DNA of 19,533 bases from a virus, in the UHGV virus genome UHGV-0357976; one strand, given 5' to 3'. The notes beneath the pieces are model-generated. The model saw nothing but the letters and a program-made list of their open reading frames with translations. It made no database searches and was not told where the DNA came from. The translations under genes were made by a program, and so were the position numbers. Each line of letters opens with the position of its first letter. Position 1 is the first letter of the stretch. Below, one piece after another: positions 1-17,751 of this stretch.

Positions 1-1050
1 GCTGCTGATGTGAAAGCCGGTAACAGGCTGTTTTTGAATCTTCCGTCAGGCACAGCTCAGGCCAGAACCGTCCAGGCCGTTAACGGAAACACAGTCACTG
101 TCACCACACCCTACAGCGAAACGCCGGAGGCTGAATGTAACTGGGGTGTGGACTCTGACGATCTGTTTATAGCGCTTTTCCGTGTTACGGGAACGCGGGA
201 CAACAACGACGGTACTTTCGAGGTCACCGGGACGACTTACAACCCTGATATCTATTCCGCTGTTGATACCGGCGCAAGACTGGACGAGCGGCCAGTCAGT
301 GTCATTCCGCCAGGGGTTCAGGCTCCCCCAGGAAATATCGTCGTAGACAGTTACTCTACGGTTAACCAGAACATTGCGATTACCACCATGCGCGTTGCCT
401 GGGATGCTGTTCAGGGTGCAGTTGCGTACGAGGCGGAATGGCGGCGTGACAGCGGCAACTGGATTAGTGTGCCACGAACGTCTTCTCTCGGCTTTGAAGT
501 GCAGGGTATCTACTCTGGTCGCTATCTGGTCCGCGTCAGGGCGGTGAACGCCAGCGACGTTTCATCAGTGTGGGCGACATCACCAGAAGTAAATCTTACG
601 GGTAAAGTGGGCAATCCACCGAAGCCGGTGGGTTTCATCGCGTCTGAAAACGTGGTGTTCGGTATCGAGCTGAACTGGGGGTTCCCGGCCAATACGGACG
701 ATACACTGAAGACGGAAATTCAGTACAGCCTGACCGGTACTGAGGACGATGCGATGTTGCTGGCTGATGTGCCATACCCACAGCGTAAATATCAGCAGAT
801 GGGCCTTAAAGCGGGGCAGATTTTCTGGTACCGCGCGCAGCTGGTGGACCGCAGCGGCAACGAATCAGGGTACACAGAATGGGTGCGAGGACAGGCCAGC
901 ATCGATGTATCCGATATCACCGATGCAATCCTGGAGGACATGAAAGGCTCCGATACGTTCAAAGACATGATCGAGAACGCGGTGGACAGCAACGAAAAAA
1001 TTGCTGGCATGGCTAACGATATCAAACAGGCCAACGACGAACTGGAGCAG
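1..1050 (+). CDS. J-like host-specificity (central tail fibre) protein, 3' portion of a second copy; 5' end is outside the window; no native stop (frame runs on to 1434 through antisense of the minus-strand J)
   Basis: Frame 1 translation from position 1 (AADVKAGNRLFLNLPSG...) is colinear with the minus-strand J protein: roughly 60% identity over the first ~195 aa, then near-identical from LTGKVGNPPKPVGFIASEN to ANDIKQANDELEQ (ends at 1050). After 1050 the translation becomes Cys/Arg/His-rich and non-protein-like (antisense of J). Confidence 0.7.
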
Positions 1051-1704
1051 GTCCAGCTGAGCGCTGTTCCCTGCTACAGATGCAGACAACGTTTTACGCG
1101 CGGCTACCTGCGCCAGGTTGCCCTGAATAATTGCGATAGCAGAGTTCTTCACCCCGCCCGTCATGCCGTCCATAGACACAGAAATCTCGTCGATCTTCAC
1201 TTCGGCCTGAGCCAGCCCGTCAGCGTTCTCCAGGATGTCTTTCGCTTGCTGCTCCAGTTCGTCGTTGGCCTGTTTGATATCGTTAGCCATGCCAGCAATT
1301 TTTTCATTGCTGTCCACAGCGTTCTCGATCAGGTCTTTGAACGTATCGGAGCCTTTCATGTCCTCCAGGATCACATCTGTGATGTCGGAAACATCGATGC
1401 TGGCCTGTCCTCGCACCCATTCTGTGTACCCTGATTCGTTGCCGCTGCGGTCCACCAGCTGAGCGCGGTACCAGAAAATCTGCCCAGCCTTGAGGCCCAT
1501 CTGCTGATATTTGCGCTGCGGATAAGGCACATCGGCCAGCAGCATCGCATCGTCCTCGGTTCCGGTCAGGCTGTACTGAATTTCCGTCTTCAGCGTGTCG
1601 TCGGTATTCGCCGGGAATCCCCAATTTAGCTCGATACCGAATACCACGTTTTCAGAAGCGATGAAGCCAACCGGCTTCGGTGGGTTGCCCACTTTACCCG
1701 TCAG
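595..1704. repeat. Inverted repeat formed by two convergent J gene 3' segments: arms 595-1050 (+) and 1249-1704 (-), about 456 bp each, around a 198 bp asymmetric core (1051-1248)
   Basis: The reverse complement of 1001-1050 is identical to 1249-1298; the next 40 bp differ at 3 positions; by eye the arms are about 92% identical, mostly at third codon positions. Weaker homology continues outward (1-594 vs 1705 to about 2300). Confidence 0.85.
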
Positions 1705-3840
1705 CGTTTTCTCTTCTGAATAGCCCCATCCGGATGAGATTTCTGCGGCATTGATTGCGCGTACGCGCACCAGGTAGCGCCCGGCATAAATCCCCGGGAC
1801 GTCGAATGACGTGGTGGAGCTGCGCGGCACGTTAACCCAGTTCCCGTCGTTGCGGCGCCATTGCGCTTCATAGGCGATAGCGTTCTGCGCCTGGTCCCAG
1901 CTCACGCGCATCGTTTCGACGCTGATATTTTGCTGCACCACAGAAAACGAGCTGATCACGATGTTCGAAGGCGGCGACTGGTTGCCCGGCGGGATCACGC
2001 TCACCGGCCGCTGGTCAATGATGGCTCCGGTATCGATACGGGCATATTTATCCGGGTCGTGCCATGCGCCGGTAATCGAGAAAGTGCCATCATCGTTATC
2101 GGAAACGCTGACAACTCGATACTGCTGCGCGTAGAGCTCGTCAGATTCAACCACCCAGACAGCTTCGGCCTGTGGCGTCTCACTGTATGCCGTGGTGACT
2201 GTGACTGATTCCCCGTTCACGGCCTGAATGGTCCTGCTCTGCGACGCTCCGGAGGGAAGGTTGAGAATAAGGCGATCACCTGGTGCTGCATCAGCTACGC
2301 GGTCAAGTTTGATAACGCGACCGTTAACGGCGCTGATGCGGCCGCCCATAACCTTTCCGGAAAGCAGCTCGTCTGCCACGGCGATGATGTAGCCCGGCTG
2401 CGGAATGTTTCCGTCCAGCCCGACATCAAACGAAACAACGCGATCCTTGTTATTGGTGAGAATACCCCAGCGCCCCTTTCGGTTCGCCTCTGACTGCCTG
2501 GTGCAGCCGATGGCTGTCATTTCCAGCTGATTGAAGCCGTACCGCGCCACCAGCGCCTGCTCAAATACCGGCTCCATCGCGTCGGCATAAGCGTTACCCG
2601 GGTCTGACCATGAAACCAGCGCTGTGGTGTAGCGGCTTTTCGTGGTGCTGCTCGAATAGGTGAAGCGACCGCCAACAACGTTAGCGCGCGTATAGCTGTA
2701 ATCAACATCGCGCGGCATGTCAGCCAGGGCCACAATCTGATCCCCGCCCCAGTAGGTCATGCCACGGAAGATAGCGGCAAAATCACGCAGGACTGTGTAG
2801 GCGTCGTTCCGGTCCTGAATGTACACGTTGCAGGTATAACGTGGTTCTGTACCATTGCCCCCTTTGCCGTCTGGTACCATCTGATCACAATACTGAGCAA
2901 CCTGATAAAGCGTCCATTTATCAATATTCGCAGCGGTCAAACGGTGCCCAAGGCCGAACCGGTCAGAAACAACCAGGTCGTAAAAAATCCACGCAGGGTT
3001 ATCCGTCCATGCCCACTTAAACGCACCGGTCCATGTACCGCTATAAGTGCGGGTTTCAGGGTCGTAGGTATCTGGAACGCGGATAACGCGGCCGCGCGGT
3101 TCGCATGAAATTTGAGGAATAGAGCCGTTGAACTGGCTTGAGTCGAATTCGACGTAGAGCAGCGCGGTGTTCGGGTAGCGCAGTTTGGCGTCAATCACCT
3201 CGGTGAAGCTCTGCAGCATCATCGTGTCGCCGATCTTCGCGCTGTTGGCGTCAGAGGTAATCTTACGCAGACGTATTGTCCAGGTGCTGCCAGCCTGCGG
3301 TAAATCGATACGGTGGCTGCGCTCATAACCTGAGGTCGTTTTACCGGTCACGCTGGTATTGAGTACCGTCTGCCATGTGCCGCCGTCCGTCTGTAGGTCA
3401 ATCGCATAATTGACCGAGTAACCCACCAGATCGCCGTCGTCTTCCTGTTTGAAAAGCGAGGGCCATTTAAGACGCAGGCGAACTGCTGAAAGCTGCGTAT
3501 TGGTAAACGTGCGCGTCCAGGCTGTGGCACTTGATACCTCAGTTCCTACGCTGATCTCGTTTTCGGTACCGGGAATACCCTGAATATATTTTTGCGCCTG
3601 AGTTCCCGCGCGAAACTCCCACGTTACCCCGCTGAAGTTTTGGGAGCCGTCAGCATTCTCCAGCGCTGTTCCGTCCAGGTAGATATCTTTGCCGGTGAGC
3701 TGCCCTGCAAACTCACCTTCCCCAAGCGCAACGAGGATTTTTGCCTTCGCTACAGATTGCAGATCATCAGGCTGTTCGGTAGGAGTTCGGGAACTTGAGC
3801 TGCCGCCCTTGCGGCCTTTTAACACTTTATCTGTAGCCAT
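865..3840 (-). CDS. J: Tail tip / host specificity protein J (lambda gpJ family); the homology-supported part is 1051-3840, and the last ~62 codons (865-1050) are antisense of the plus-strand J copy
   Basis: 991 aa ORF with recalled gpJ-family blocks (EVIDAKLRYPNTALLYVEFDSSQF, YTCNVYIQDRNDAYTVLRDFAAIF), fibronectin-III-like repeats, and position directly after the I homologue. The C-terminus ends in sequence that is the mirror of the plus-strand copy. Confidence 0.9.
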   Translation of the reverse strand: MATDKVLKGRKGGSSSSRTPTEQPDDLQSVAKAKILVALGEGEFAGQLTGKDIYLDGTALENADGSQNFSGVTWEFRAGTQAQKYIQGIPGTENEISVGTEVSSATAWTRTFTNTQLSAVRLRLKWPSLFKQEDDGDLVGYSVNYAIDLQTDGGTWQTVLNTSVTGKTTSGYERSHRIDLPQAGSTWTIRLRKITSDANSAKIGDTMMLQSFTEVIDAKLRYPNTALLYVEFDSSQFNGSIPQISCEPRGRVIRVPDTYDPETRTYSGTWTGAFKWAWTDNPAWIFYDLVVSDRFGLGHRLTAANIDKWTLYQVAQYCDQMVPDGKGGNGTEPRYTCNVYIQDRNDAYTVLRDFAAIFRGMTYWGGDQIVALADMPRDVDYSYTRANVVGGRFTYSSSTTKSRYTTALVSWSDPGNAYADAMEPVFEQALVARYGFNQLEMTAIGCTRQSEANRKGRWGILTNNKDRVVSFDVGLDGNIPQPGYIIAVADELLSGKVMGGRISAVNGRVIKLDRVADAAPGDRLILNLPSGASQSRTIQAVNGESVTVTTAYSETPQAEAVWVVESDELYAQQYRVVSVSDNDDGTFSITGAWHDPDKYARIDTGAIIDQRPVSVIPPGNQSPPSNIVISSFSVVQQNISVETMRVSWDQAQNAIAYEAQWRRNDGNWVNVPRSSTTSFDVPGIYAGRYLVRVRAINAAEISSGWGYSEEKTLTGKVGNPPKPVGFIASENVVFGIELNWGFPANTDDTLKTEIQYSLTGTEDDAMLLADVPYPQRKYQQMGLKAGQIFWYRAQLVDRSGNESGYTEWVRGQASIDVSDITDVILEDMKGSDTFKDLIENAVDSNEKIAGMANDIKQANDELEQQAKDILENADGLAQAEVKIDEISVSMDGMTGGVKNSAIAIIQGNLAQVAARKTLSASVAGNSAQLDLLQFVVGLFDIVSHASNFFVAVHRVLDHVFERIGAFHVLQDCIGDIGYIDAGLSSHPFCVP

Positions 3841-3850
3841 ATTGCGCCCA

Positions 3851-3873
3851 TAAAAAAGCCACCCGAAGGTGGC
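3851..3873 (-). terminator. Intrinsic-terminator-like hairpin (GCCACC-CGAA-GGTGGC) followed by a U-tract on the minus strand, in the I-J intergenic space
   Basis: 6 bp GC-rich stem at 3858-3873 with a 4 nt loop; the A6 run at 3852-3857 on the plus strand is a U6 tract 3' of the hairpin on the minus strand. Confidence 0.5.
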
Positions 3874-3892
3874 CAGAAAAAAGGTTAGTTAT

Positions 3893-4501
3893 CTACTGCT
3901 GATCTTCGACATAAATTCCGGCAGAAATAATCGCTCCGCCGATTCGACGCTTACCATAAAGCAGAGGCACCGGGTAGCCTTGCGCTGCAGTGTTGGTTAC
4001 CCCGCCAAACGCATACGATGCACGGTTATCTGCGCTTTGTTTACTGGCTATGCCTGATGGCTGCGGTGAAAGAAGCTGAATAACCCCACCGAGGACCAAC
4101 GAGGCGCCAGTGGCAGCAGCAAACCCCGTCAATCCACCAGCAGCGAAAGCAGCGCCAATACCGCCAGGGCCAGTCAATACAGCAGCAGTAATAAGCACGG
4201 CCCCCAGGATTGTCTGCAAAAGACCAGCGCGTTTACTACCGATAATTACAGGCATAATCCTTACTACATCGCCTTCAGAGGGAAAACCCATCTCATCTGC
4301 GGCAATATTTCTTTTCCCTTTGAACACCGCGAAAGTTAATCCGCGACGTTTACTGCTGATCATGAAACTTTCGAAACCTGGCAATGTTTTACTTAAAGCA
4401 ATAGCAGCTTCACCAGTTCGCGCTATCAGTCGTTGATGGGTTCTACCGAATGTCTTTCCTAACACTCCGCCGAGCTGAATTGTTGTCATTACTTCTTTCA
4501 T
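3893..4501 (-). CDS. I: Tail tip assembly protein I (lambda gpI-like)
   Basis: 202 aa; Gly/Ala-rich hydrophobic central segment and C-terminal LVLGGVIQLLSP ... AAQGYPVPLLYGKRRIGG blocks resembling recalled lambda gpI; sits between K and J. Confidence 0.8.
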   Translation of the reverse strand: MKEVMTTIQLGGVLGKTFGRTHQRLIARTGEAAIALSKTLPGFESFMISSKRRGLTFAVFKGKRNIAADEMGFPSEGDVVRIMPVIIGSKRAGLLQTILGAVLITAAVLTGPGGIGAAFAAGGLTGFAAATGASLVLGGVIQLLSPQPSGIASKQSADNRASYAFGGVTNTAAQGYPVPLLYGKRRIGGAIISAGIYVEDQQ

Positions 4502-4510
4502 ATTCTCACC

Positions 4511-4533
4511 ATAAAAAAACCCGCCGAAGCGGG
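4511..4533 (-). terminator. Intrinsic terminator (CCCGC-CGAA-GCGGG plus U-tract) immediately downstream of the lipoprotein gene
   Basis: Hairpin at 4520-4533; the A-run at 4513-4519 on the plus strand is a U7 tract after the stem on the minus strand; 12-25 nt beyond the lipoprotein stop at 4545. Confidence 0.6.
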
Positions 4534-4544
4534 TTAAGTCTTGG

Positions 4545-4886
4545 TTAGATACAGCGTTCTATTACTTTAATCCGGCTGTTTATTCGATAAGCAAATAGCC
4601 CACCTTGATGACGGAATTCAATCTTGGTAATTCCGCCGTCCGATATTAAATCAACCATCTCAAGTTGAGATTGTGTAAATACAGTTTTACCACCGTCATA
4701 AGGCTGAATAAAAACGCTTCCATATTTTTGGCTTTCTTCTTGCCAGCCAGAGAGTATGCATTCAGCTACTGCGTCAATTTGTTTCTTCGATTGAAAAGTA
4801 TTTGACGCTGGTTCCTTCCGGAGATCCTGCATACTCGAACAACCAGCCATGATTATCAAAGAAAGTGTCAATAATGTTTTTTTCAT
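4545..4886 (-). CDS. Small secreted lipoprotein (moron) inserted between tail genes K and I; function unknown
   Basis: N-terminus MKKTLLTLSLIIMAGC has a signal peptide and lipobox (IMAG-C); AAGGGGA Shine-Dalgarno about 9 nt upstream of the ATG at 4886; visibly AT-rich compared with the flanking tail genes; followed by its own terminator. The ORF-track start at 4922 would overlap the K stop, so the internal Met is preferred. Confidence 0.7.
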   Translation of the reverse strand: MKKTLLTLSLIIMAGCSSMQDLRKEPASNTFQSKKQIDAVAECILSGWQEESQKYGSVFIQPYDGGKTVFTQSQLEMVDLISDGGITKIEFRHQGGLFAYRINSRIKVIERCI

Positions 4887-4915
4887 ATCCCTATCCCCTT
4901 TGGTTTTGCAAAAGG

Positions 4916-5626
4916 TTAGCACAGAGATTTGTAACGTAGAATCTTCATCGTCCTTTCCTGCCAGTAGCCACCATACGGCACGCGCTGGCTCAGATGTCCG
5001 TACAGGTGGTGCAGCAGCATGTTACCCTCCAGTAAAATCCCGGCATGATTCCACTTATCGGCCTGCACCTGCATGATGACGAGGTCCCCTTCCTGAGGCG
5101 GGCCGTCAAACTCCCTGAATCCGCATTCATACCAGCAATCCTGATAAAAATTGTCCGGATAGGCGTTTTCCCACCAGGGATAATCCACCCGGTAATCGTG
5201 GAGCTCGATACCATGCGTTTGCCGGAAATAGCTCATTACCAGCCCCCAGCAGTCGAAGTGTCCAAGCACAAACGGACGCTCCAGCAGTGGCAGTTCTCCG
5301 CGCGGCTGGATGGTGCGTAAATCCCCCTCCGGCCAGCTCACAATATGCCAGGGTAAAAGCGTTGCGTCGCATTGCGCTTTATCCAGTTCGCTCGGCTGCG
5401 TAGTGGCGTCAGGGTGACTGTGAACGATGGCGATCACCGTACCCCAGTCCTCAGCAGCTGCATAGTCTTCTGGCGACAGGTGAAAATGTTCTGTCGGCTC
5501 GGTAGCGAGGTTACTACATGGAAAATATTTCTCTACCCGGCTCTTTTGCGCCACCACGCCGCAACACTCACGAGGATATTCAGCTGCAGCATGCGCCATA
5601 ATCGCATCGATGGTTTTCTGACGCAT
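4916..5626 (-). CDS. K: Tail tip assembly protein K (lambda gpK-like; MPN/JAB plus NlpC/P60-type domains)
   Basis: 236 aa; MRQKTIDAIMAHAAAEYPRECCGVV and HSHPD motif; strong resemblance to recalled lambda K; position between L and I. Confidence 0.88.
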   Translation of the reverse strand: MRQKTIDAIMAHAAAEYPRECCGVVAQKSRVEKYFPCSNLATEPTEHFHLSPEDYAAAEDWGTVIAIVHSHPDATTQPSELDKAQCDATLLPWHIVSWPEGDLRTIQPRGELPLLERPFVLGHFDCWGLVMSYFRQTHGIELHDYRVDYPWWENAYPDNFYQDCWYECGFREFDGPPQEGDLVIMQVQADKWNHAGILLEGNMLLHHLYGHLSQRVPYGGYWQERTMKILRYKSLC

Positions 5627-5627
5627 A

Positions 5628-6383
5628 TCAACTCCTGATCAGCGACGTACCCGGGAACCCACCAAACGAGAGTTCGTTGTTTTCACCGAACCGAAGTTTG
5701 CAGGCCGTCAGCGTTCCGTTGCATTCATCCAGTGACGGATCGCTTACCTGGTTGTTGTTTTTGTCGAAATAGCGCGTACCTGCATAGTCGCAGCCGTCGC
5801 CGGTTCGGTACTTGTTCCGGATGCACCATGTGCACAGAGAATGAAGCTGGCGGGTAGGTATCATCAGCCCCTGCAGATCCATAGGGCTGGATAGTGTGAA
5901 CTCAACAACTTCATTGTTTTCACTGCTCTTTGCATCGATGTAGAAAACCTTCAGCTTCTCCTGGGTCGGATCGGCTGTCGGATTGCCTCCGGTGAAGTTT
6001 CTCGCATCGAGATACTTACCAAGGGTGTCATGTATCGTCACCTTCGCCTGCAGCATATCGTCGTAAGCCAGGCAAAGCGCGGTGATCGAACTGTCGAGGT
6101 TAGCAACCGAAAGTTTTGGCTGGGCACTACTTCCCGAGGTTGAAGCTTCGATCCCCTCAATCTGGCATGGCCACGCTTTATACTCCTCACCCTGCCACCA
6201 GATAGATTTTGCTGGCAGTTTATTTTCATCACCGCCAGCAGCGATAATTTCGGCTTCAGAGTGCGCAAGACTGTAGCTGTGAAATCGCAGCACATCACCT
6301 GTACCAAATGCCGTGCCATCCACTTCGAAAAGCCTGACCACATCGCCAGGTTCGAGCTTCTGAAAATCTGCGTTAAGACTCAT
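5628..6383 (-). CDS. L: Minor tail protein L (lambda gpL-like)
   Basis: 251 aa; C-terminal cysteine cluster (CTWC ... C ... C) typical of gpL; position between M and K. Confidence 0.85.
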   Translation of the reverse strand: MSLNADFQKLEPGDVVRLFEVDGTAFGTGDVLRFHSYSLAHSEAEIIAAGGDENKLPAKSIWWQGEEYKAWPCQIEGIEASTSGSSAQPKLSVANLDSSITALCLAYDDMLQAKVTIHDTLGKYLDARNFTGGNPTADPTQEKLKVFYIDAKSSENNEVVEFTLSSPMDLQGLMIPTRQLHSLCTWCIRNKYRTGDGCDYAGTRYFDKNNNQVSDPSLDECNGTLTACKLRFGENNELSFGGFPGTSLIRS

Positions 6384-6721
6384 GGTTTGTAGGCCTGTTC
6401 AAAAGTTGCAGAAAGATTAAATAACCCGGCACCAAGTGGCGTTGGTGTGTAGGTGTCGCAGCGGTAAAGCCCGAGAGGCTCAAGCGGCGGGCGCCACTGA
6501 AACGCCGTCACGCCCGCATGGCGATCGAGAAAGTCTTTAATCGCCCCGATATACGTTTCGGTACCGGTAAACTGGAGAGTCCATTTCTGCGAGCGGGGAT
6601 TAATCCCGTCGCCGGAAACCTGCTGATATCCGTCACCGAACTGCGCGGTGCGCCGTCGGAATGTCACTTCCTGCTCCGCGTTCGGGCGCGGACACCAGCT
6701 GAATGTTTCTATAGCCATCAC
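6380..6721 (-). CDS. M: Minor tail protein M (lambda gpM-like)
   Basis: 113 aa; RFGDGY motif region; 4 bp overlaps with the tape-measure stop and the L start; position directly after the tape measure gene. Confidence 0.8.
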   Translation of the reverse strand: MMAIETFSWCPRPNAEQEVTFRRRTAQFGDGYQQVSGDGINPRSQKWTLQFTGTETYIGAIKDFLDRHAGVTAFQWRPPLEPLGLYRCDTYTPTPLGAGLFNLSATFEQAYKP

Positions 6722-9138
6722 CGCCCTCCTTTTGCCAGATTCCAGACCGCGCCACCGGGTGAAAGGTCACGGCCTATCAACTCGCGGTATCGCCGATCAA
6801 CAAAACTACCTACCTCCCGCCCGAATTGCTCATATCCACCGCTAGCCTGAGTCTGGGTATTCCCATTGCCATCAATCTGAATACTGACCTGAGGAGCACT
6901 ACTACCACCCGGTGTTAAGCCTGAGATTCCCATAGCACGCACGCCCAGCGATCCGTCAGCGGCGCGGGTCAGTGGCATAATAGCCTCCGGCCCAGCCTCC
7001 CCCATCAATCCGGCCCCTTTGGCAAAGGCAAACAGTGTTGGAGAGCTGACGACAGAGTTACTGTACTGACTGAGATCGGCAGAAGAGTAAACGCCGCCTT
7101 TGGCGTTGAATTGCAGGCTCGCCCCGTAGGACTGAATCGCAGTACCGCTGCTGGCGGAAGACGATGCGGCACCACCGAACAATGAGCCTATCGAGCTGGC
7201 TGCATTGGCGATCATCATGTTAACCATCACCTGTTCGATGATTTTCAGAACACTGACACCCCAGTCTTTCCAGCTCGCTTTATTGCCGTTGAGCATGTCG
7301 ACGATATTGCTGCTGATACCGGAAAGCGCGCTTTTCATAGCGTCCGCCGCCAGCGTCGCATAGTTAGTTGAATCATCTACCCAGTCAGCGAGACCGTCTC
7401 TGGCGCCAGTCACCCAGTCAGACTGCAGCGCATCAATTTGACTGTAATAATCCTCCTGGATGCCCAGCCTCTCAGCTTGTGCATCCTTTAATGCCTGGGT
7501 TTCGCGGTCATAAACTGTCTGGCTGATATCTCCTGACTGATACTGCTTTTGCAGATCGCGCTGCTGATCGAGATAACTGCGCTCTATACTCAGCCTTTCC
7601 CTCAGCCTTTCACGCTGCTTGTCACCGAGTCCGGCCCCCTGAATATCCACGCCCAAATCTGCACGTGCATTCTCGTTCTGCTCCTGCAGATTTGCCACGA
7701 ACGCCGCTACCTTCGCGTTTTCTTCATTAGCTTTTTTGACGGCATTAAGGCGATCAACTTCCTGAGCCAGAGACGCAAGTCGTTTCTTCTGGGTTTCGTT
7801 AAGCCCCTGCAACTTGCCGTCAGCTATATCGAACTGCAGTTTTTGCTGCTCGGTCACAACAGCAGTTTTTTTGCCGGTGGTATCGATCAGCTCAATCTGA
7901 CGCATGTAACTGCGCTCAGCGCTTTTAAACGCTGAATCCAGTTTCTGACCAGAGGTATTTTTTTGCGGCTTACCGTTTGTTTCCCCGGCGCCAAGGGTAT
8001 AGTTTGTTTTGACTGGCTCGGGCAGTTTTATTTTCGGTAGAGTAGATTGGGAGTTTCTCAAAAAGGCCAGTCGCCTCTGGAGCTCAGCCCTTTCGGCCTC
8101 CTTACCGGATACGTCCATACCTATTCTGTTGAAACTCGCCAGTATGCCTTTATCATCGAGATCTGCATTCAGGTTCTTGATGCGCCGTTCAATTTCTGGA
8201 ATGGAGGCATTCAGGCCGACCGAACTCCCACCTTTGTACTGGTCTATCAGCTTTCCGGCCTCGGCTCCTACCCTTACCAGCCAGGTGGCAAGGTCCACTA
8301 CCCCACCAACCAGATCAGTCAGACCCTGAATAACAGCCGGGTCTTTAAATACATCCCCCATATCTCCAATAGACTTCTGGAGCCCACTCAAATCTACGCT
8401 GGCGAGCCCTGCAGCAAGTTCAATTTTGACGCCGTTGACCTGCGTCTCCATATCCTCAAACAGGGCGTTGACTCTGACCAGCTTTTCAATATCTGCGTCA
8501 TCGGGCGCCACACCAAACTTCTTCGCGGCATCCATATACTGACGCAGCTTTTCACTGCCATTGTCCAGGAGCGGCAGCATCTTTGACAGGTCATTACCCA
8601 GACTCTCCAGGATGGTAGTCTTCTCGGCGTTGGACTTAACTTTCTCCAGTGCGTCGCTGATAGCCAGGAGTTGCTTGTCGGGAGATTCTCCGGCCAGTTT
8701 CTTAGCCGACAAACCCAGAGCGTCCAGCGCACCGACCGCCTCACCAGATTTATTAAGAACGGCATCACCGATTTTGTCTCCGACATCTTTAAAGATATCG
8801 GCCATCTGATCGCCGGAAACACCTGCTTTTTCTGCAGCATATTGCCAGGCTAACAGGGACTGCGTGGACATGTTAAGTGACTTTGCCCAGCGGTCTGATT
8901 CGGTAATCTGACGTGAAGTGGTTTTGAGCAGGTTATACCCCGCCACTCCGGCTCCGATGGCTGCAGCCCCGACTGCTGTTGCGAATCCGGTCATGGCAGC
9001 TGCAGCGGCAGCGGCATCCTCCTTTACCTGCTTACGCCATTTTTGTGAAGCTCGCTCAGCCTGCGAGAGGCCTGAGACAAAACCGCCCACTTTGGCAATC
9101 AGGTCGATCGTCAGCGTGCCCAGTGATTTGGAAGCCAT
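6718..9138 (-). CDS. Tail tape measure protein
   Basis: 806 aa, long alpha-helical and low-complexity protein with a Gly/Ala/Ser-rich C-terminal part; located between the G/G-T chaperones and M. Confidence 0.9.
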   Translation of the reverse strand: MASKSLGTLTIDLIAKVGGFVSGLSQAERASQKWRKQVKEDAAAAAAAMTGFATAVGAAAIGAGVAGYNLLKTTSRQITESDRWAKSLNMSTQSLLAWQYAAEKAGVSGDQMADIFKDVGDKIGDAVLNKSGEAVGALDALGLSAKKLAGESPDKQLLAISDALEKVKSNAEKTTILESLGNDLSKMLPLLDNGSEKLRQYMDAAKKFGVAPDDADIEKLVRVNALFEDMETQVNGVKIELAAGLASVDLSGLQKSIGDMGDVFKDPAVIQGLTDLVGGVVDLATWLVRVGAEAGKLIDQYKGGSSVGLNASIPEIERRIKNLNADLDDKGILASFNRIGMDVSGKEAERAELQRRLAFLRNSQSTLPKIKLPEPVKTNYTLGAGETNGKPQKNTSGQKLDSAFKSAERSYMRQIELIDTTGKKTAVVTEQQKLQFDIADGKLQGLNETQKKRLASLAQEVDRLNAVKKANEENAKVAAFVANLQEQNENARADLGVDIQGAGLGDKQRERLRERLSIERSYLDQQRDLQKQYQSGDISQTVYDRETQALKDAQAERLGIQEDYYSQIDALQSDWVTGARDGLADWVDDSTNYATLAADAMKSALSGISSNIVDMLNGNKASWKDWGVSVLKIIEQVMVNMMIANAASSIGSLFGGAASSSASSGTAIQSYGASLQFNAKGGVYSSADLSQYSNSVVSSPTLFAFAKGAGLMGEAGPEAIMPLTRAADGSLGVRAMGISGLTPGGSSAPQVSIQIDGNGNTQTQASGGYEQFGREVGSFVDRRYRELIGRDLSPGGAVWNLAKGGR

Positions 9139-9157
9139 AAACTCTCCGTTGGCGGCA

Positions 9158-9819
9158 TTATGTCCAGCTGGCTCTGGCTTCCTCTAACGAGATTGGTCCA
9201 TCAGCAGCTTTGACTTTGGTAAAGTGAAGTGTGAAATCGGTCGGGTTGAATGGTGGGCGCTTGGGGTCTCTGTTAACGTTGGCTATCATGCTGCTCACCA
9301 GCCCGGCACCCCACTCAACCCGCAACATAGGGTTCAGACTCCCGTATCGTTCCCGGTACTTTGCCCAGAGTTGGGACTCTTTGAATGAGAGGACTTCCCG
9401 CGCTTCGGCGATTGTTCTGCCTCCGATTCCGTTGAGGACGAGCTCGCACCAGAATTCGTCTTCGGCGCTGAGCTCGAAGTCTTTCCCAGATCGTTAACTT
9501 CCTGAATGGCCAGAAGCAGTGCTACCGTCAGGCCGCCATCCAGTGCACCACGTTCAGGATCTGCCTCACCAGTAATGTCAGCCGGGGTGAAGATGGGTTT
9601 ACCATGTTCATCGCAGATGGATGCGGCGATACGCCCTGCCACACCATCGACCTTACCACCAAAAGCCAGCACATCGGACGTTGCTGTGTGATAACCCATC
9701 GGGCGAACATACACGGTCGCGGTGATTTTTTTATCGCCTTGCGTCCAGGTGATTTCTTTCTCAACCGGGCGACCGGTAAACGCGCCGGACTCCTTGAGTG
9801 CATCAAGTGTTAATTTCAT
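9158..9819 (-). CDS. T: Tail assembly chaperone G-T fusion made by programmed -1 frameshift (G frame 9819-9481, T frame 9481-9158)
   Basis: Slippery heptamer G GGA AAG at 9481-9487 in the G frame; the -1 frame downstream encodes a protein-like sequence (DFELSAEDEFWCELVLNGIGGRTIAEAREVLSFKESQLWAKYRERYG...) ending at a TAA at 9158-9160, just upstream of the tape measure start. Confidence 0.75.
9334..9819 (-). CDS. G: Tail assembly chaperone G (zero-frame product)
   Basis: 161 aa ORF (MKLTLDALKESGAFTGRPVEKEITW...) between the major tail and tape measure genes; contains the slippery site at codons 111-113; the zero-frame tail after the site is Ser/Gly-rich low complexity. Confidence 0.8.
   Translation of the reverse strand: MKLTLDALKESGAFTGRPVEKEITWTQGDKKITATVYVRPMGYHTATSDVLAFGGKVDGVAGRIAASICDEHGKPIFTPADITGEADPERGALDGGLTVALLLAIQEVNDLGKTSSSAPKTNSGASSSSTESEAEQSPKRGKSSHSKSPNSGQSTGNDTGV
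9481..9487 (-). other. Programmed -1 ribosomal frameshift slippery heptamer GGGAAAG (G to G-T)
   Basis: Exact heptamer in X XXY YYZ register within the G frame (CTG GGA AAG); same motif as the lambda G-T frameshift. Confidence 0.75.
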
Positions 9820-9838
9820 TATTAATCCTGATTAATAA

Positions 9839-9852
9839 GGGCGTTGCCGCCC
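9839..9852 (-). terminator. GC-rich hairpin (GGGCG-TTGC-CGCCC) directly after the major tail protein stop; possible attenuator
   Basis: 5 bp GC stem with 4 nt loop; on the minus strand it is followed by the U/A-rich UUAUUAAUC; lies between the major tail stop (9858) and the G start (9819). Confidence 0.4.
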
Positions 9853-9857
9853 TGATT

Positions 9858-10358
9858 TTATGGGGTCACGACTTTTGGCACCCATACAGCAGAGCCGGAG
9901 CGCTGGATAGATGCAGAAGTAGAAACAACCGTGTTTGCTGCAAAATCAAACGGGAAGTCGGACACATAGCCTTTGAATACGAACCATGTGCGGCTATCAG
10001 GTAGCACCAGGCCATCGACTGCACCGGATGCACCATTTTCAGCCGCAGTTGGCGATGCGGTTCCGTCTGACCATCCAATCGCGAAGGTCAGGTCCTGATC
10101 CTCTTCGTCGTCCGAAATGGACAGGTTGTAGAGCATGATGTGGCTGGTATTTTTAGGATCAGCGTTAAGCGTCAGTGATGCTGTGCCAGGCGTTCGAAGA
10201 CCACGCTTATAGCTGCGATCAAAGCGTTCAGAAAGACAGGTGTCTTCAATCTGGTCAGCCGGATTGCTGCCGGGTGAAAATGCAGTGATACATTCAACTT
10301 CGCTCACCTTGCCTTTTACGAGCACAAAGAGCTGCGTACCTTGCGTCAATACAGACAT
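9858..10358 (-). CDS. Major tail (tube) protein
   Basis: 166 aa ORF immediately upstream of the G/G-T chaperone genes, the conserved siphovirus position; GGAG Shine-Dalgarno 6 nt upstream of the ATG. Confidence 0.75.
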
Positions 10359-10374
10359 TGTTATCTCCGGTCAT

Positions 10375-10397
10375 AAAAAAACCGGCTCAAGGCCGGT
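10375..10397 (-). terminator. Intrinsic-terminator-like hairpin (ACCGGC-TCAAG-GCCGGT plus U7) upstream of the major tail gene
   Basis: Stem at 10381-10397; the A7 run at 10375-10381 on the plus strand is a U-tract after the stem on the minus strand; between the stop at 10413 and the start at 10358. Confidence 0.5.
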
Positions 10398-10412
10398 GGT
10401 TGAATAATACGT

Positions 10413-10778
10413 TTATCGAGTGACTATCCAGTCAACATCGAATGAGTAGCGATAGCGCTTTGTTTCTGGGTCTCTTTCCTGTCCGCCCCAGCGCGTGATA
10501 TGCGCGTGCGGCTCAATGGCATCCCGCAGCGCAGTAGCCACGGCAATCACTTCATCCACGGTGTCGGCATATGCATCCACCTGCAGCGTGAAAAAGTCTG
10601 CGTCAGGGCGCTGGGCAATGTAGTTCTCTGGAGAACCGGTGATGTTCTGCCAGACCACATAGGGATAGACCACGTTGTCGTCCTGAATTCCGAAAGGATA
10701 AATTCTTACCGGATTGCTTCCGAGTAAGTCAGTGACTTCAGGACTCGACGCGCAAACAGAAAAAATAGGGGCAATCAT
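10413..10778 (-). CDS. Tail completion / neck protein (DUF3168-like)
   Basis: 121 aa; pattern RIYPFG ... YPYVVWQNITGSPENY ... LQVDAYADT ... resembles recalled DUF3168 phage proteins; position between the HK97 gp10-like gene and the major tail gene. Confidence 0.7.
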   Translation of the reverse strand: MIAPIFSVCASSPEVTDLLGSNPVRIYPFGIQDDNVVYPYVVWQNITGSPENYIAQRPDADFFTLQVDAYADTVDEVIAVATALRDAIEPHAHITRWGGQERDPETKRYRYSFDVDWIVTR

Positions 10779-11323
10779 GCAGTGGTTCCTTTCTTCATGG
10801 CCAGCCTGATAGCGCGATCAATAGCCTTTCCCATTTCCGTAGAAAAAACATTAATCACGTCATTATCTACGCCGTTCATTGCAGGTCGGAGGATAGGCCG
10901 CGCTGATGTGTGCTCAGTACCAAACTCAAGAAAACGCCAGTACCAGGTATCTCCTCCTGGATTGCCTTTATCTCCTGAGGTTTTGTATGTTTTACCCGCT
11001 CTGCCTTTTCTGACGTTTGCCTTTGTATTTGCATACTGCCTGGCACCGCCCATTACCCCGACACGGAATGCCAGATCACCTGTCCTGCGGAATTGCTTGC
11101 TGCTGAAGCTGGCGACGATATTTTTGTGGATTGCTTCTTTAGTCAGAGGATCATCAACTCGTGACGCGTTGCTTCTGGCCCGATCCCTTATAATGTTTGC
11201 CGCCTTACGCAATGCAAACCGACCGGCTTTATTACGGGTGACTTCTGATACGGCCTCCATTTTCCCAAGAAGTGATTCAAGCCCGGTAAGACTTACCTCA
11301 ACACTATCAGCCATCATTAACAC
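10775..11323 (-). CDS. HK97 gp10-family head-tail joining protein
   Basis: 182 aa; motifs RKGRAG ... YWRFLEFGT ... RPILRPA typical of the HK97 gp10 family; conserved position. Confidence 0.75.
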   Translation of the reverse strand: MLMMADSVEVSLTGLESLLGKMEAVSEVTRNKAGRFALRKAANIIRDRARSNASRVDDPLTKEAIHKNIVASFSSKQFRRTGDLAFRVGVMGGARQYANTKANVRKGRAGKTYKTSGDKGNPGGDTWYWRFLEFGTEHTSARPILRPAMNGVDNDVINVFSTEMGKAIDRAIRLAMKKGTTA

Positions 11324-11639
11324 CCTCAGAACAGGGAAGCGTCAGGTATTCACGTCCGCTTTTTGGATCGGGCAGAACACCATGGATGTTATACACAGCA
11401 CCACGAAACAAGATGCGATGTTTTCTGGTAACTCCGGCACGGTAGCGAATAACAATACGGGTGGTTATTTCACCCTGAGAAGCCTGCGCAGCAATAAATT
11501 CACGCGCTGACAATGGTGAAACTTCGGCCCGGACAGTCGCAACATCTCGCCAGGTATTAATTACGGCTCCCGTTGTCGGGTTCTGCACTTTTACTGGCTC
11601 CTGCAGAGTAATCCTGTGGCGCAATTTCCCGGCCTGCAT
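11307..11639 (-). CDS. Phage head closure / head-tail adaptor protein (Phage_H_T_join-like)
   Basis: 110 aa; GKLRHRITLQ ... W ... AEVSPLSAREF ... TTRIVIRYR pattern matches the recalled family consensus. Confidence 0.75.
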   Translation of the reverse strand: MQAGKLRHRITLQEPVKVQNPTTGAVINTWRDVATVRAEVSPLSAREFIAAQASQGEITTRIVIRYRAGVTRKHRILFRGAVYNIHGVLPDPKSGREYLTLPCSEGVNDG

Positions 11640-11640
11640 G

Positions 11641-11838
11641 TTACCCCCTGGGTTTACCGCTCAGATAGGTTTGTTGCTCTGCAGTTTCATCTAGTTCACC
11701 AGCCAGCGACTGGATAATGACATCGCAAAGCGCCATATTTGATTCAGCCAGACGGCTTATCGCTTCCGTCTGCTCCCTCTGCGCTGTGATTTGTTCCCGT
11801 ATCACTGCTATCAGTTCGTTTACCAGTTGCTCGTTCAT
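11641..11838 (-). CDS. Hypothetical small acidic helical protein (65 aa)
   Basis: ATGA start/stop overlap with the upstream 78 aa ORF (translational coupling); its stop lies 1 nt before the head-closure ATG; no recognisable family. Confidence 0.5.
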   Translation of the reverse strand: MNEQLVNELIAVIREQITAQREQTEAISRLAESNMALCDVIIQSLAGELDETAEQQTYLSGKPRG

Positions 11839-12071
11839 AAGCTATTTTTGCCCACTTTTTTATCCACTCGCTCCGTTGCGCGCATCCAGACGCGAATCGT
11901 TGCCTGCGCCGTTTCCGCGCCGCCTGAAAGCTGCTCTCTGCCGCTGATCCTCTTTACCTCAGCCGGGACCGGGTTGCCACCTGTCCACGATTCAACCGGC
12001 TGACCAGATGGATCGCGCGAAGTCGTGAAGGTGAGAATTTTTACCCGGTGCCTGAATCGTCCTGGTTCCAT
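11835..12071 (-). CDS. Short head-closure-like paralogue (78 aa), homologous to the N-terminal two-thirds of the Phage_H_T_join family
   Basis: GRFRHRVKIL ... PSGQPVESW ... PAEVKRISGREQ ... ATIRVWMR parallels the full-length head closure protein at 11307-11639; ORF ends at about 70% of family length. Confidence 0.55.
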   Translation of the reverse strand: MEPGRFRHRVKILTFTTSRDPSGQPVESWTGGNPVPAEVKRISGREQLSGGAETAQATIRVWMRATERVDKKVGKNSL

Positions 12072-12397
12072 CAGGAGCCCTCCTCTGATTCGGCTTTACC
12101 GCGCCAGTTGCGATGAATGAACATCATGCGTTCGGCGGCTGCATTCTCATAAAGCTGCACTTCGCTTTGTGCCGTCCGGTGTTCAAACATGTCAGCAAAG
12201 ACAAGCAGAACGGCGCCCTTAACGGCGGCAGGAATATCAGCCGCAACCTTCCATGCTGGTTCATCGCACCAGCGCATGCAGTAGTCAAAAGCGGCCTGGG
12301 CGTACAGCGTGATCAGCTCGTCCCTGTCGTCTTCCTCAAACTCAATCTGCTGCTTAAACAGACTGAGGGAAATTACATCCAGAACATCTATCGCCAT
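12071..12397 (-). CDS. gp6-like head-tail connector protein
   Basis: 108 aa; ITLYAQAAFDYCMRWC motif region typical of gp6-like connector proteins; located directly after the major capsid gene. Confidence 0.75.
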   Translation of the reverse strand: MAIDVLDVISLSLFKQQIEFEEDDRDELITLYAQAAFDYCMRWCDEPAWKVAADIPAAVKGAVLLVFADMFEHRTAQSEVQLYENAAAERMMFIHRNWRGKAESEEGS

Positions 12398-12400
12398 ACG

Positions 12401-12424
12401 TTAAAAGGGCGGGTTTACCCGCCC
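12401..12424 (-). terminator. GC-rich hairpin (GGGCGGG-TTTA-CCCGCCC) plus short U-tract directly after the major capsid gene; probable attenuator
   Basis: 7 bp stem at 12407-12424; on the minus strand it is followed by UUUUAA (12401-12406); between the capsid stop (12431) and the connector start (12397). Confidence 0.5.
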
Positions 12425-12430
12425 CCTCCA

Positions 12431-13588
12431 TCATGAGCCAGAAGAGAAGGTGCCCTTGATGATTGCTGTCGGGCGATAATGCGCCAGCGCCAGACGCTCT
12501 TCGCACAGGATGGTCAGCATGTTTTTCACGAAGTTATCGCGGTCTTCACGGCTAACTTCCACGGTGGCATCCATGCGATCCCAGACCTGTGAGGCCATAT
12601 CGAAACCGCCTACGGTAAAGGTGCCGGCGGCCTGCGCCTTAGTCGGAACCACTGGCAAGCCCCACATGATGTTACTGGTGAATGCCTGAGGACCACCGAA
12701 GATATAGCGGCCTTCATTGTCTTTCAGCAACGCGATGTTGTGCCAGTCGCGCGGGTTCAGGACGATACCGGAAGCGCTGAACTCAGACTCGGTCACCTGA
12801 TAAATAGCGTGAGCGATAATGTCAGCGCGGGTGTCGCCGGTGGCATTCAGCGAGGTGTCATAGGCGGTTGCCACTTTGTTCAGCCCTTCCAGGTTATCCC
12901 CGGTACCGTCGCCGTTCAGCAGCTGGCCCTCTTCCTTCAGTGCCAGGCCGTACATGAGGCGGTTGTTAATGTAGGACTGAAGCATTGGCGCATCATCCAT
13001 CACCTGACGTGATGCCTGCACCCAGTGCGCGATGGTCTTCACGTTCGCGGTTTGTTTGCTGAAGGTGATATCCGATTCTGGCTTCAGTGCTTTCTCTGCC
13101 ACCACGTCGGCGTTATTGGTAAACACCTCTTCACGCACATATTCCAGAGCGTTACTGGAAGTGCGGCCCTGAGCCAGCAGATCACGAATGGTAAGACGGC
13201 GCAGGCCTGGCATGATGATGCCTGGGATCTGCATAGGCTGGATCAGTGAGCCAGCCGAATCAGCGTCACTGCCTAGTGACTTGTTAAACGTTTTAGCGCC
13301 AAAGGTGCCCTGTTTACCGTCCCATGACTTAATAAGCTCTTCAGCAGCCCGTTCAGAGAAGGATTTCTTCTCACCAGGATTCTCAGCGCCGGATGCCAGT
13401 TTCTGTTCCAGATCGAAGAGGCGAGTGCCGGATTTGGTCAGCTCTTCCTGTACTTTCATCAGGTCGGACTGCAACTGTTTGGAAACCTGGCCTGTGCTTT
13501 CGATTTCTGCTTTCTGCGCATCGAAAAGCTGGGTCATTTTCTGCTGGGATTCTTCGATAGCTTTTTGAATGAGAGCGAGTTCAGACAT
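12431..13588 (-). CDS. Major capsid protein, HK97 family (with N-terminal delta/scaffold domain)
   Basis: 385 aa; N-terminal ~100 aa is coiled-coil-like and charged, followed by a capsid-like body; directly downstream of the prohead protease, as in HK97-type head modules. Confidence 0.85.
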   Translation of the reverse strand: MSELALIQKAIEESQQKMTQLFDAQKAEIESTGQVSKQLQSDLMKVQEELTKSGTRLFDLEQKLASGAENPGEKKSFSERAAEELIKSWDGKQGTFGAKTFNKSLGSDADSAGSLIQPMQIPGIIMPGLRRLTIRDLLAQGRTSSNALEYVREEVFTNNADVVAEKALKPESDITFSKQTANVKTIAHWVQASRQVMDDAPMLQSYINNRLMYGLALKEEGQLLNGDGTGDNLEGLNKVATAYDTSLNATGDTRADIIAHAIYQVTESEFSASGIVLNPRDWHNIALLKDNEGRYIFGGPQAFTSNIMWGLPVVPTKAQAAGTFTVGGFDMASQVWDRMDATVEVSREDRDNFVKNMLTILCEERLALAHYRPTAIIKGTFSSGS

Positions 13589-13590
13589 AA

Positions 13591-14280
13591 TTATTTACCT
13601 AAGTTAGAAGGGAAAGATTTGATGCTCTGAAGCAGAGCGTTTATTTGTGCTTCGTTTCCGTCGCCCTCGGACTCGCTCCGAATCGCTGACTTAAACCGGG
13701 CAATTAGCCCAACTGCCTGTGATTTGGTGAGGCCGACTGAATCCCTCAGCCAGTTCTCCACATCACGAATCGTTTCAATACCATCGACACTTTTCATGGC
13801 TGCGATGCCAGCCTGTTCGTTGGCGGGGAAAGTGCAGACGCTGATTTCGCGCAGAGCCTGGATATTCTTAAAAATGCGGCCTGTTGGAATGATGGTGTAA
13901 TCGTCTTTCGAAACGGAAAAGCCAACCGACATACCTTCAACCGTACCGTGCTGCATTGCCGCTTTCAGGTCAGCGGCGCCGCTGTGTCCTGGGGTAAGTT
14001 GACCGCGCACATACAGGCCTTTTTCGTCCTCAGCCAGGCTGTCCCATTTGCCAACCGGCAGTTCCCACGTCCTGTGGTTAAAAAACATCGCCACTTTTCG
14101 GGTCTGGTTCGCCAGCGCGTTTTTAAACGCCCCGGGCAGAATGATGTCGCCATCGGAATCGGTGTTATTAAAAACAGAGGCGTAGCCTTCAAAAATCCCC
14201 TGTTTACCGTCACCGGTGAATTTGATTTCTGTCTCGTCGAAGGACAGCGTTTTTACGATTTCAGGCATTACGGCCCCCAT
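13591..14280 (-). CDS. Prohead protease (HK97 family); true start may be the internal Met at 14268
   Basis: 229 aa between the portal and major capsid genes; size and position fit HK97-type prohead maturation protease. Confidence 0.8.
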   Translation of the reverse strand: MGAVMPEIVKTLSFDETEIKFTGDGKQGIFEGYASVFNNTDSDGDIILPGAFKNALANQTRKVAMFFNHRTWELPVGKWDSLAEDEKGLYVRGQLTPGHSGAADLKAAMQHGTVEGMSVGFSVSKDDYTIIPTGRIFKNIQALREISVCTFPANEQAGIAAMKSVDGIETIRDVENWLRDSVGLTKSQAVGLIARFKSAIRSESEGDGNEAQINALLQSIKSFPSNLGK

Positions 14281-14285
14281 AAAAA

Positions 14286-15563
14286 TTAAGCCCCGTTATT
14301 ACGGGGCTCTTTGTTGGTTCCTAAATCGGTGATCGGCACGTATTGCGACTGGCGCATTGCCACATCGCCACCCGGCAATGGCGGGAGGTTGTCCGTTCGT
14401 CGCATCTCGTTGATGGTGCGTAGCCCTGACTCTCCCATTGCCTTCATAAAGGCAGCGCGGGATGCCGAATCTCCCCTCAGCAGGCCGTCGAGGTTGTGCT
14501 CAGCATGAATGCGGCCAACATCCTTAGCAGGAATAAGCCACCGCTGAATGCTGTTTTCCCACCTGGAGATATATGGCTGCAGGGTGTACTGCAGGAAGCC
14601 GAGATTCTGCTGCTCGATGCCCGATCCCCAGCTCGTTGATTTCTCGACGTCGCCGACAAGGTGAGGCGGTACGCCAAAGAATCGCGCCAGTTCACTTACC
14701 TGAAATTTTCGGGACGCCATCATTTCGGCATCCTGCGGAGTTACGCCAATTGCCGATGTAGAAAAACCCGCTTCCAGAATCCAGAGGCGTTTTTTTACCG
14801 GGCCGCCGGCGATCTCTTTGAAGTTCTCTTCGACCTGGGAGCGCTGCTGTTCAGTTAGCACTTTTTCGCCAGTTGAGAGGATTTGCGGAGACTTGGCGCC
14901 GTTGGCAAAGAAATCTCGCTGCTGGTCCTCCATCGCAACTGCCACACCTGCCGATTTACAGGCAAAAGCAATGGGTGACAGGCCTACAAGCCCGGTGAAT
15001 CCGAAGCCTTTAAGGTGAAAAATCTCTTTCTGCGAAAAGTCGGCGTATTCGCTGTCGCGTTGATAGCGATAAACCACTTTTTTTCCGACGAGTTTCACAT
15101 CCATATTGGCAGACTGAAGCGGGAGTAGGCTGATCACGTCACCTGCGCTGTTGCGGTCCACAAGTGCATATGCGTTACCGTAGAAACAGAGCTGCATCGT
15201 CATGGCCTCCCTGAATTCTTGGGCGGTCATGTACTGATTCGGTGAGTAGCGCAGCAGTCGCGCCAGTGGATTGCTCAAATCCACTTTTTTACGGTTGTCA
15301 TTCTGGTCTGTTTCGAAGACATCAAGCGGTAAGCATGCCGTGAGCGTTGAAATCAGGCTCACGCAGCGCCACACAGTCGAAATTTGCAGTATCCGTTCAT
15401 CGTTAATGGATGAATCGCCCAGGTATCCGTGGGCCGAAACAGGCCCCGTCTGTGAGCCCTGATTTGGGGTGACTAAACGCCCGCCGACAAACCAGGACTT
15501 CAGCCTTGCCCACCAGCCGTTATTGGTTCGCAGGTCAATCGTGTATTTAGGTTCTTCCATCAC
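14286..15563 (-). CDS. Portal protein (HK97 family)
   Basis: 425 aa; ATGA overlap with the terminase large subunit stop; canonical position between the terminase and protease genes. Confidence 0.85.
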   Translation of the reverse strand: MMEEPKYTIDLRTNNGWWARLKSWFVGGRLVTPNQGSQTGPVSAHGYLGDSSINDERILQISTVWRCVSLISTLTACLPLDVFETDQNDNRKKVDLSNPLARLLRYSPNQYMTAQEFREAMTMQLCFYGNAYALVDRNSAGDVISLLPLQSANMDVKLVGKKVVYRYQRDSEYADFSQKEIFHLKGFGFTGLVGLSPIAFACKSAGVAVAMEDQQRDFFANGAKSPQILSTGEKVLTEQQRSQVEENFKEIAGGPVKKRLWILEAGFSTSAIGVTPQDAEMMASRKFQVSELARFFGVPPHLVGDVEKSTSWGSGIEQQNLGFLQYTLQPYISRWENSIQRWLIPAKDVGRIHAEHNLDGLLRGDSASRAAFMKAMGESGLRTINEMRRTDNLPPLPGGDVAMRQSQYVPITDLGTNKEPRNNGA

Positions 15564-17074: not shown

Positions 17075-17080
17075 AGTCTT

Positions 17081-17566: not shown

Positions 17567-17751
17567 ATGTCAACACCTTAAAACTAAAAAAATCGGGTTA
17601 GCGTTAAATTCAAACTTTGGCGGCGGTCATTTAGGGAAAAGGTTTTGAAGATTTGATCCCCCCCCCTGCCATGAATGCGATTCATTCTCATTTGATATCG
17701 TTGCATTTGAAATGATTTCACATGATAGATAATCGACTTGCCGCCGCCGCG
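17567..17751. other. Non-coding region upstream of the terminase small subunit gene; candidate cos / packaging-initiation region
   Basis: 185 bp with no ORF; contains a C9 homopolymer (17658-17666) and inverted GC-rich motifs (GGCGGCGG at 17619-17626, CCGCCGCC at 17741-17748); location between the HNH and terminase genes is where cos lies in HK97-like phages. Confidence 0.3.

Follow-up and report, generated by a model that had tools for sequence, protein, structure and literature searches.

Cor, which is carried by phages phi80, N15, HK022 and mEp167, and Llp of phage T5 are small outer-membrane lipoproteins with disulfide-forming cysteines that inactivate FhuA; Llp has a second role late in infection, when it masks the receptor. 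Exclusion genes that are expressed in lysogens classically lie in the prophage immunity region, beside the repressor. More generally, prophage morons rank among the main sources of phage resistance and of lysogenic conversion, and most of them are unannotated. The lipoproteins Lpp021 and Lpp010 of the mEpimmI phages are encoded in the structural/tail gene cluster; when cloned, they confer exclusion that depends on receptor type and affects phages with OmpA or LamB as receptor (PMC11893012). HK97 gp15, a moron of the YebO family, is a proven prophage-expressed exclusion protein (PMC3594210).

Here we analyse a lipoprotein gene located between the tail genes K and I of the virus genome UHGV-0357976, a prophage of the HK140/mEpX2 type, in a stretch of 19,533 nucleotides referred to below as the window. 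Like Cor and Llp, its product is a phage lipoprotein encoded in or near tail genes, and these two proteins provided the mechanistic model for the function that we propose; they differ from it in size (about 60 mature residues vs. 98 here) and are not homologous to it. Lpp021 (mEp021 gp81) is a protein of 72 aa encoded downstream of J, and sequence searches with our lipoprotein did not retrieve it. As a candidate for a homologue residing between K and I it was rejected for mEp021, in which K and I overlap and gp81 follows J. The YebO-family proteins HK022 gp20 and HK97 gp15 are unrelated 74-aa inner-membrane proteins rather than lipoproteins, and HK97 gp15 is encoded at a different site of the tail operon.

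Results

A lipoprotein gene fills the gap between K and I

All tail genes of the window are on the minus strand (Table 1). The initial annotation had reported a 113-aa lipoprotein gene with a lipobox, its own Shine-Dalgarno sequence and its own hairpin/U-tract terminator at positions 4502-4915, an interval bounded exactly by the K stop codon (4916) and the start codon of I (4501). Each of these elements was recovered in our analysis. The translated protein consists of MKKTLLTLSLIIMAG followed by the lipobox cysteine, which begins the mature sequence CSSMQDL...ERCI. A program-made list of open reading frames gives a longer, GTG-started version of 125 aa (4545-4922); we take ATG 4886 as the real start, because every homologue begins with MKK.

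Table 1. Coordinates of the lipoprotein gene, its signals and the neighbouring tail genes in the window.
Feature	Position	Strand	Remarks
Lipoprotein CDS	4545..4886	-	ATG 4886 to stop 4545; 342 nt; 113-aa prolipoprotein
Signal peptide (aa 1-15) and lipobox Cys16	4839..4886	-	Cys codon 4841-4839; Ser at +2
Shine-Dalgarno-like AAGGGGA	4894..4900	-	7 nt ahead of ATG; read from sequence
Candidate extended -10, TGcTAACCT (TGCTAACCT)	4913..4921	-	TGnTAnnnT; 35 nt before ATG; overlaps the terminal Cys and stop codons of K
Intrinsic terminator	4511..4535	-	7-bp GC-rich stem 4535-4518, UUCG loop, T run; before I
Tail-tip assembly protein K (upstream)	4916..5626	-	JAB/MPN PF14464, E = 2.6e-21; NlpC/P60 PF00877, E = 4.5e-22
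Tail assembly protein I (downstream)	3893..4501	-	Weak Pfam Lambda_tail_I match; annotated as similar to HK022 gp21 / lambda I
Tail gene M	6380-6721	-	Pfam
Tail gene L	5628-6383	-	Pfam
Tail gene J	865-3840	-	Pfam
AT-rich mosaic segment (vs. HK022)	4205..4937	-	Last 7 codons of K, moron, first ~300 nt of I

The N-terminus has the features of a lipoprotein signal, namely a signal peptide (K2K3 and then a hydrophobic core ahead of the lipobox M-A-G-C) and an invariant lipobox cysteine: Gly15 and Cys16 were invariant in alignment A2, and Cys16 was invariant in 35 diverse members of the family (sets of 17-35). The match to Pfam LPAM_1 was weak. According to the Lol rule, Asp at position +2 causes a lipoprotein to avoid outer-membrane sorting; the presence of Ser, and not Asp, at +2 points to sorting of this lipoprotein to the outer membrane. 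Downstream of the gene, the terminator has a folding energy of -18.9 kcal/mol (z = -4.7), and none of 200 shuffled sequences folded equally well.

The gene had also been described as clearly lower in GC than its neighbours, which holds for its overall value (0.386, GC3 0.325, vs. 0.544 for K and 0.499 for I) but needs a nuance. The AT-rich stretch also spans the first ~300 nt of I, which encode the I N-terminal domain (window 4205-4501) and have a GC of 0.37-0.47. Since the 5' end of I is equally AT-rich, the GC dip is a property of a 730-bp mosaic segment and is not confined to the lipoprotein gene. Compared with HK022, identity remains at 99% as far as position 4938, where homology is lost seven codons before the K stop; it amounts to 53-83% at 4501-4202 and to 93-100% at 4201-3902, i.e. 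homology is regained inside I. Likewise, the N-terminal 100 aa of I are 52-72% identical to those of HK022 I, and the C-terminal half is 100% identical. This diverged N-terminal part beside an identical C-terminal half places a recombination joint inside I, such that the I N-domain travels with the moron.

Further downstream, a second intrinsic terminator lies between I and J (3851-3874, minus strand; GGCCACCTTCGGGTGGC plus a T run; -16.1 kcal/mol, z = -2.8). The I-J junction of the window contains no morons; HK022 has two at this place (gp22 and gp23/srb).

The left end of the window is irregular. Homology of J to HK140 stops at 1106, and the J reading frame runs into an antisense J' up to an aberrant end at 865 (991 aa). 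Positions 1-1050 of the plus strand hold part of another J allele (about aa 516-866) that converges on the minus-strand J; the arms 493-1050 and 1249-1806 are 87% complementary and lie 198 nt apart. The J/J' junction was found in no complete E. coli genome and could reflect either illegitimate joining of two prophages or a chimeric assembly. As a result of this junction, the window has neither the J C-terminus nor a cor gene.

The gene is deposited in HK140 and mEpX2 as a hypothetical

The lipoprotein is 100% identical to HK140_019 (HK140 gp19) and to its mEpX2 orthologue, which occupy the same K-I position and are annotated merely as 'hypothetical protein'; window ~1106-17615 is 99% identical to HK140. 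PHROG 914, a group of unknown function, was matched over the full length (E = 7.1e-37; residues 1-113 vs. profile 1-118 of 118). Thus, the term 'uncharacterised' used in the initial annotation is apt functionally, although the gene as such was already in the HK140 and mEpX2 records and had been assigned to PHROG 914. In the literature on HK140, mEpX2 and tail-region lipoprotein morons, we found no studies of this gene. It is present in 3 of 5426 complete E. coli genomes, and named relatives come from Enterobacter, Citrobacter and Kosakonia.

That the sequence resembles none of Cor, Llp, Bor and MliC was borne out by Pfam, NCBIfam, PADLOC and PDB sequence searches, all of which returned matches at the level of the signal peptide only. 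Specifically, scans with Pfam, NCBIfam and PADLOC gave nothing above signal-peptide noise, and a PDB sequence search with the family profile yielded leader-peptide matches only. Homology to Cor was not found, the match to PHROG 1119 (E = 0.2) covering only residues 1-23 (the signal peptide); nor was homology to T5 Llp, whose PDB entry 8a60_B was matched at E = 0.36, again over residues 1-23 only. No Pfam or NCBIfam match at E ≤ 1 was obtained for MliC/PliC or lambda Bor, and the PADLOC defence models showed neither a sequence nor a fold relation to the lipoprotein. Two names suggested by database matches were rejected as unsupported, i.e. the NCBIfam label 'T6SS immunity lipoprotein' (E = 0.08) and 'YcfL', which stems from one shortened, aberrant and probably frameshifted homologue.

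The K-I junction is a known moron slot with exchangeable cargo

HK022 carries gp20, a YebO-family protein annotated 'moron gene product', at exactly this K-I junction, and the slot is therefore already known. The HK022 gp20 cassette has the same left-hand breakpoint within K as ours, and its terminator ahead of I is equivalent. The lambda-type state without a gene between K and I, against which the gene had originally been noted as an insertion, was observed in mEp021 and E. coli ECCRA-119, where the junction is empty and K and I overlap. YebO-family genes fill it in HK022, PEC389 and MB06232, and in another E. coli prophage it holds a different lipoprotein of 110 aa, which belongs to a second lipoprotein clade. 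Homology breakpoints were located by comparison with HK022, ETEC1749 and ECCRA-119. When three cassette types were aligned, near-identity extended in K to seven codons before its stop; past this break the cargo was unrelated or highly diverged, and in all three an equivalent terminator hairpin stood directly before the I start. Equivalent hairpins also follow HK022 gp20, phiKO2 gp19 and the Citrobacter and other cassettes. phiKO2 gp19, a distant homologue of the lipoprotein, is itself annotated 'putative moron', with terminators after gp19 and after I.

With this slot empty or otherwise filled elsewhere, and with two annotated morons in it, the description of the gene as a moron-type insert stands. 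In the definition of Juhala et al. (2000), as summarised in PMC3594210, a moron is recognised by the features found here: an extra gene that close relatives lack at the same position, a differing base composition and its own terminator. The definition further names a promoter of its own that is active in the repressed prophage, for which the window offers a candidate element (see below). The gene is a moron, i.e. a self-contained accessory cassette in the known K-I slot of the HK022/HK97-type tail operon.

More than one cargo may occupy the slot. Between K and the lipoprotein gene, the IMG/VR viral contigs L039, L042 and L044 contain 0.8-2.3 kb of extra DNA, and the metagenomic contig P0061 contains an H-NS-like gene (L102, 3171-3554). 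In phage Fraca, an 89-aa reading frame (L064, 2225-2494) is additional K-I cargo.

A conserved family with three invariant cysteines

A profile search of 1.8 billion cluster representatives recovered 89 matches at E ≤ 1e-3, nearly all of 108-125 aa. The family spans the Gammaproteobacteria, its most distant members being only about 19% identical. When 35 diverse members were aligned, the sole invariant residues were the lipobox cysteine and two more cysteines, C43 (helix 1) and C112 (C-terminal helix), with Trp48 nearly invariant. C43 and C112 fit a disulfide pair that would stabilise the domain, and hence a periplasmic location. After removal of the signal peptides, distant members still aligned to the core profile over their full length, with hhalign probabilities of 98-99%.

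A separate clade of the family is formed by phiKO2 gp19 and its relatives in Serratia phage OS31 (p54), Escherichia phage Fraca and the E. coli ETEC1749 prophage. Its members have the same slot, size, three cysteines and terminator as the gene in the window. At about 24% identity they were missed by single-sequence searches; comparison of the mature sequences showed them to be homologous (hhalign 97.3%, E = 2e-11).

Among close relatives, the median dN/dS of the lipoprotein was 0.13 (219 pairs), compared with 0.04 for K and I, which indicates purifying selection that is somewhat relaxed. A spurious or decaying reading frame without function might be suspected from the AT-richness of the gene, its scarcity in E. 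coli and its dispensability, as many related phages do without it. This explanation is effectively refuted by conservation: the dN/dS value, the uniform length and invariant cysteines of the 89 representatives and a confident structure model all contradict it.

The AlphaFold2 model built with the family alignment had a pLDDT of 87.9 and the topology beta-alpha-alpha-beta4-alpha. The mature domain of ~98 residues is predicted to adopt a compact small alpha/beta fold of the KA1 / Flpp3 kind. Foldseek found no PDB match at E ≤ 1e-3, the best being Flpp3 at E = 3e-3; in BFVD there were two weak matches, both to uncharacterised phage proteins. The likeness to Flpp3 (DUF3568) and to KA1 / TBP-like domains is one of fold only, at 10-16% identity, and says nothing on function. 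As modelled, the fold is a generic one that carries no functional label and is clearly not that of Llp. Cor and Llp were absent from the fold matches, as were lysozyme-inhibitor structures of the MliC/PliC type.

Signals that suggest expression from the prophage

A two-hexamer sigma-70 promoter scan of positions 3800-5700 gave no match. Upstream of the gene, however, is the extended -10-like element listed in Table 1. Of 20 lineages, 10 have the pattern TGnTAnnnT at a distance of 34-44 nt ahead of the start codon, whereas 0.56 would be expected. In six lineages the motif overlaps the Cys codon and TAA at the end of K, and in these TGnTAA may be conserved for coding reasons, because it coincides with the Cys and stop codons of K; in the other four there is no overlap with the K stop. 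The recurrence of this element is suggestive of a promoter belonging to the gene itself. The terminator is consistent with such an arrangement: judging from lambda biology, a terminator placed before an essential tail gene would be expected if it halts only transcripts that are not antiterminated, i.e. those made in the lysogen, and lets late transcription pass.

These signals bear on the possibility that the protein is a helper of the lytic cycle, expressed from the late operon only, which either masks the receptor so that progeny are not lost on debris or aids egress. The gene does lie within the late tail operon, in the same orientation as K and starting only 29 nt past it, with no canonical promoter found; and in some relatives (L002, L052) there is no terminator and the gene ends 7-15 nt before I, which suggests plain co-transcription. 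Yet the position of the terminator, directly ahead of an essential tail gene, is understandable only if it acts on transcripts that are not antiterminated, and both the recurrent extended -10-like element and the family members located 3' of genes for a CI-type repressor or an HTH regulator (see below) speak against expression confined to the late operon. We consider a purely lytic role improbable.

Family members also occur at sites typical of lysogen-expressed genes

In 40 of 40 IMG/VR loci the gene lay in the K-I gap, invariably some 47 nt ahead of I, and most sampled lineages of the family have it at this position. The K-I position is kept in relatives with 40%, 38% (a Klebsiella phage), 31% (Citrobacter), 28%, 23%, again 28% (contig P0061) and 19% identity; in contig P0061 it is part of a degraded tail module. 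In two Citrobacter prophages (L056 and L058, 4393-5815), which are presumably defective, an insertion sequence (DDE_Tnp_1 transposase) has shortened I to 133 aa, and the lipoprotein homologue upstream of the broken I is still intact.

In five sampled lineages the gene lies away from K-I. One distant member (L103, 3206-4378) is directly 3' of a CI/LexA-type repressor gene (HTH_3 plus Peptidase_S24), and this repressor gene diverges from replication genes; in lambda, the genes at the corresponding position beside the CI repressor are rexAB. A second distant member (L055, 878-2095) follows an HTH regulator, and both of these sites are prophage immunity regions. In Serratia liquefaciens chromosomes (L099-L101, 6001-6366), a homologue (hhalign 98.9%) lies 300 nt 3' of genes for an S-pyocin/colicin-type DNase and its immunity protein and adjoins a myovirus-type prophage remnant; colicin operons carry a lysis lipoprotein at a comparable position. 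The two remaining lineages have the member downstream of a tail-fibre assembly gene and of a DUF29 gene respectively. Comparison of mature sequences identified the members beside the repressor, the HTH regulator, the DNase/immunity pair and the tail-fibre assembly gene as true homologues (hhalign 98-99%). Because members also sit at sites of the lysogen-expressed type, we regard the gene as mobile cargo and not as a fixed component of the tail tip.

Retention of the K-I synteny down to 19-23% identity could instead mean a role in the tail tip. One such role would be coupling to K or I, with the lipoprotein acting as a periplasmic inhibitor of the incoming NlpC/P60 peptidase or as a partner of the I N-domain. 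Besides the synteny, which spans 19-40% identity, this would account for the inclusion of the I N-domain in the HK022 exchange module, and for the observation that across the 40 loci the identity of I tracks that of the lipoprotein, whereas the identities of K, L and M do not. The linkage to I is nevertheless what adjacency leads one to expect, and an exported lipoprotein cannot meet cytoplasmic assembly proteins. Moreover, some members have no K or I nearby, and K is 96-97% identical in prophages that do not have the lipoprotein gene; both observations weaken the notion of immunity against the NlpC/P60 domain of K. Coupling to either tail protein thus appears very improbable.

A match between the lipoprotein variant and the receptor-binding end of J was considered as well and rejected, since lipoproteins that are at least 95% identical accompany at least five different J C-terminal clusters. 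HK140 and 12 related loci also carry Cor. Given this co-carriage of Cor and the pairing of the lipoprotein with varied J clusters, a block matched to the receptor of the carrying phage is neither needed nor indicated.

Discussion

That the gene exists as a deposited hypothetical and that the K-I junction serves as a moron slot was already known. What this work adds is the delineation of the family, its lack of relation to Cor, Llp, Bor and MliC, and its recurrence at sites typical of lysogen-expressed genes.

We tentatively propose, as the best-supported reading but with somewhat less than even confidence and by inference from genomic context, that the protein is a prophage-expressed outer-membrane lipoprotein moron that blocks the entry of phages, and perhaps of bacteriocins, and that stands outside the characterised exclusion families. 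Following Sec export, processing by Lgt and Lsp at Cys16 and Lol sorting as directed by Ser at +2, the protein would be anchored in the inner leaflet of the outer membrane. In the lysogen, transcription would start from a weak promoter of the extended -10 type overlapping the stop codon of K and would stop at the hairpin that precedes I; in the lytic cycle, antitermination would allow late transcription to pass this hairpin. Acting at the envelope, the anchored protein would then keep superinfecting phages out, and possibly also bacteriocins that share their import routes. This could be achieved by inactivation of an outer-membrane receptor from the periplasmic side, as by Cor and Llp, or by interference with a step after adsorption; that it acts after adsorption, or on a target other than FhuA, is just as possible. 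The support for exclusion is contextual and comprises the moron structure, the YebO-family proteins as alternative cargo, the lysogen-type sites and the precedent of the mEp lipoproteins.

A different outcome of expression in the lysogen would be lysogenic conversion, in which the protein alters the envelope (serum resistance, stress or antimicrobial tolerance, remodelling), as lambda Bor does, and blocks no infection. We judge this rather unlikely. The entry block proposed above may also be extended to the whole family. PHROG 914 and the phiKO2 gp19 clade would then together form a new class of entry-blocking lipoproteins, directed against phages and receptor-dependent bacteriocins and unrelated to Cor and Llp; its members would be disulfide-bonded proteins of KA1 / Flpp3-like fold, carried in the K-I slot, in repressor operons and beside bacteriocin genes throughout the Gammaproteobacteria. 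This wider generalisation is possible but doubtful.

Should the protein not be an exclusion factor, the gene remains an ordinary hypothetical moron. If it is one, Cor and Llp would be joined by a third type of lipoprotein, distinct in structure, that blocks receptors or entry, and the recurrent use of the K-I junction as a cargo slot in lambda-like tails would be explained. The family would then also offer a means of predicting the resistance of Enterobacteriaceae lysogens (Citrobacter, Enterobacter, Klebsiella, Serratia and E. coli) to therapeutic siphophages.
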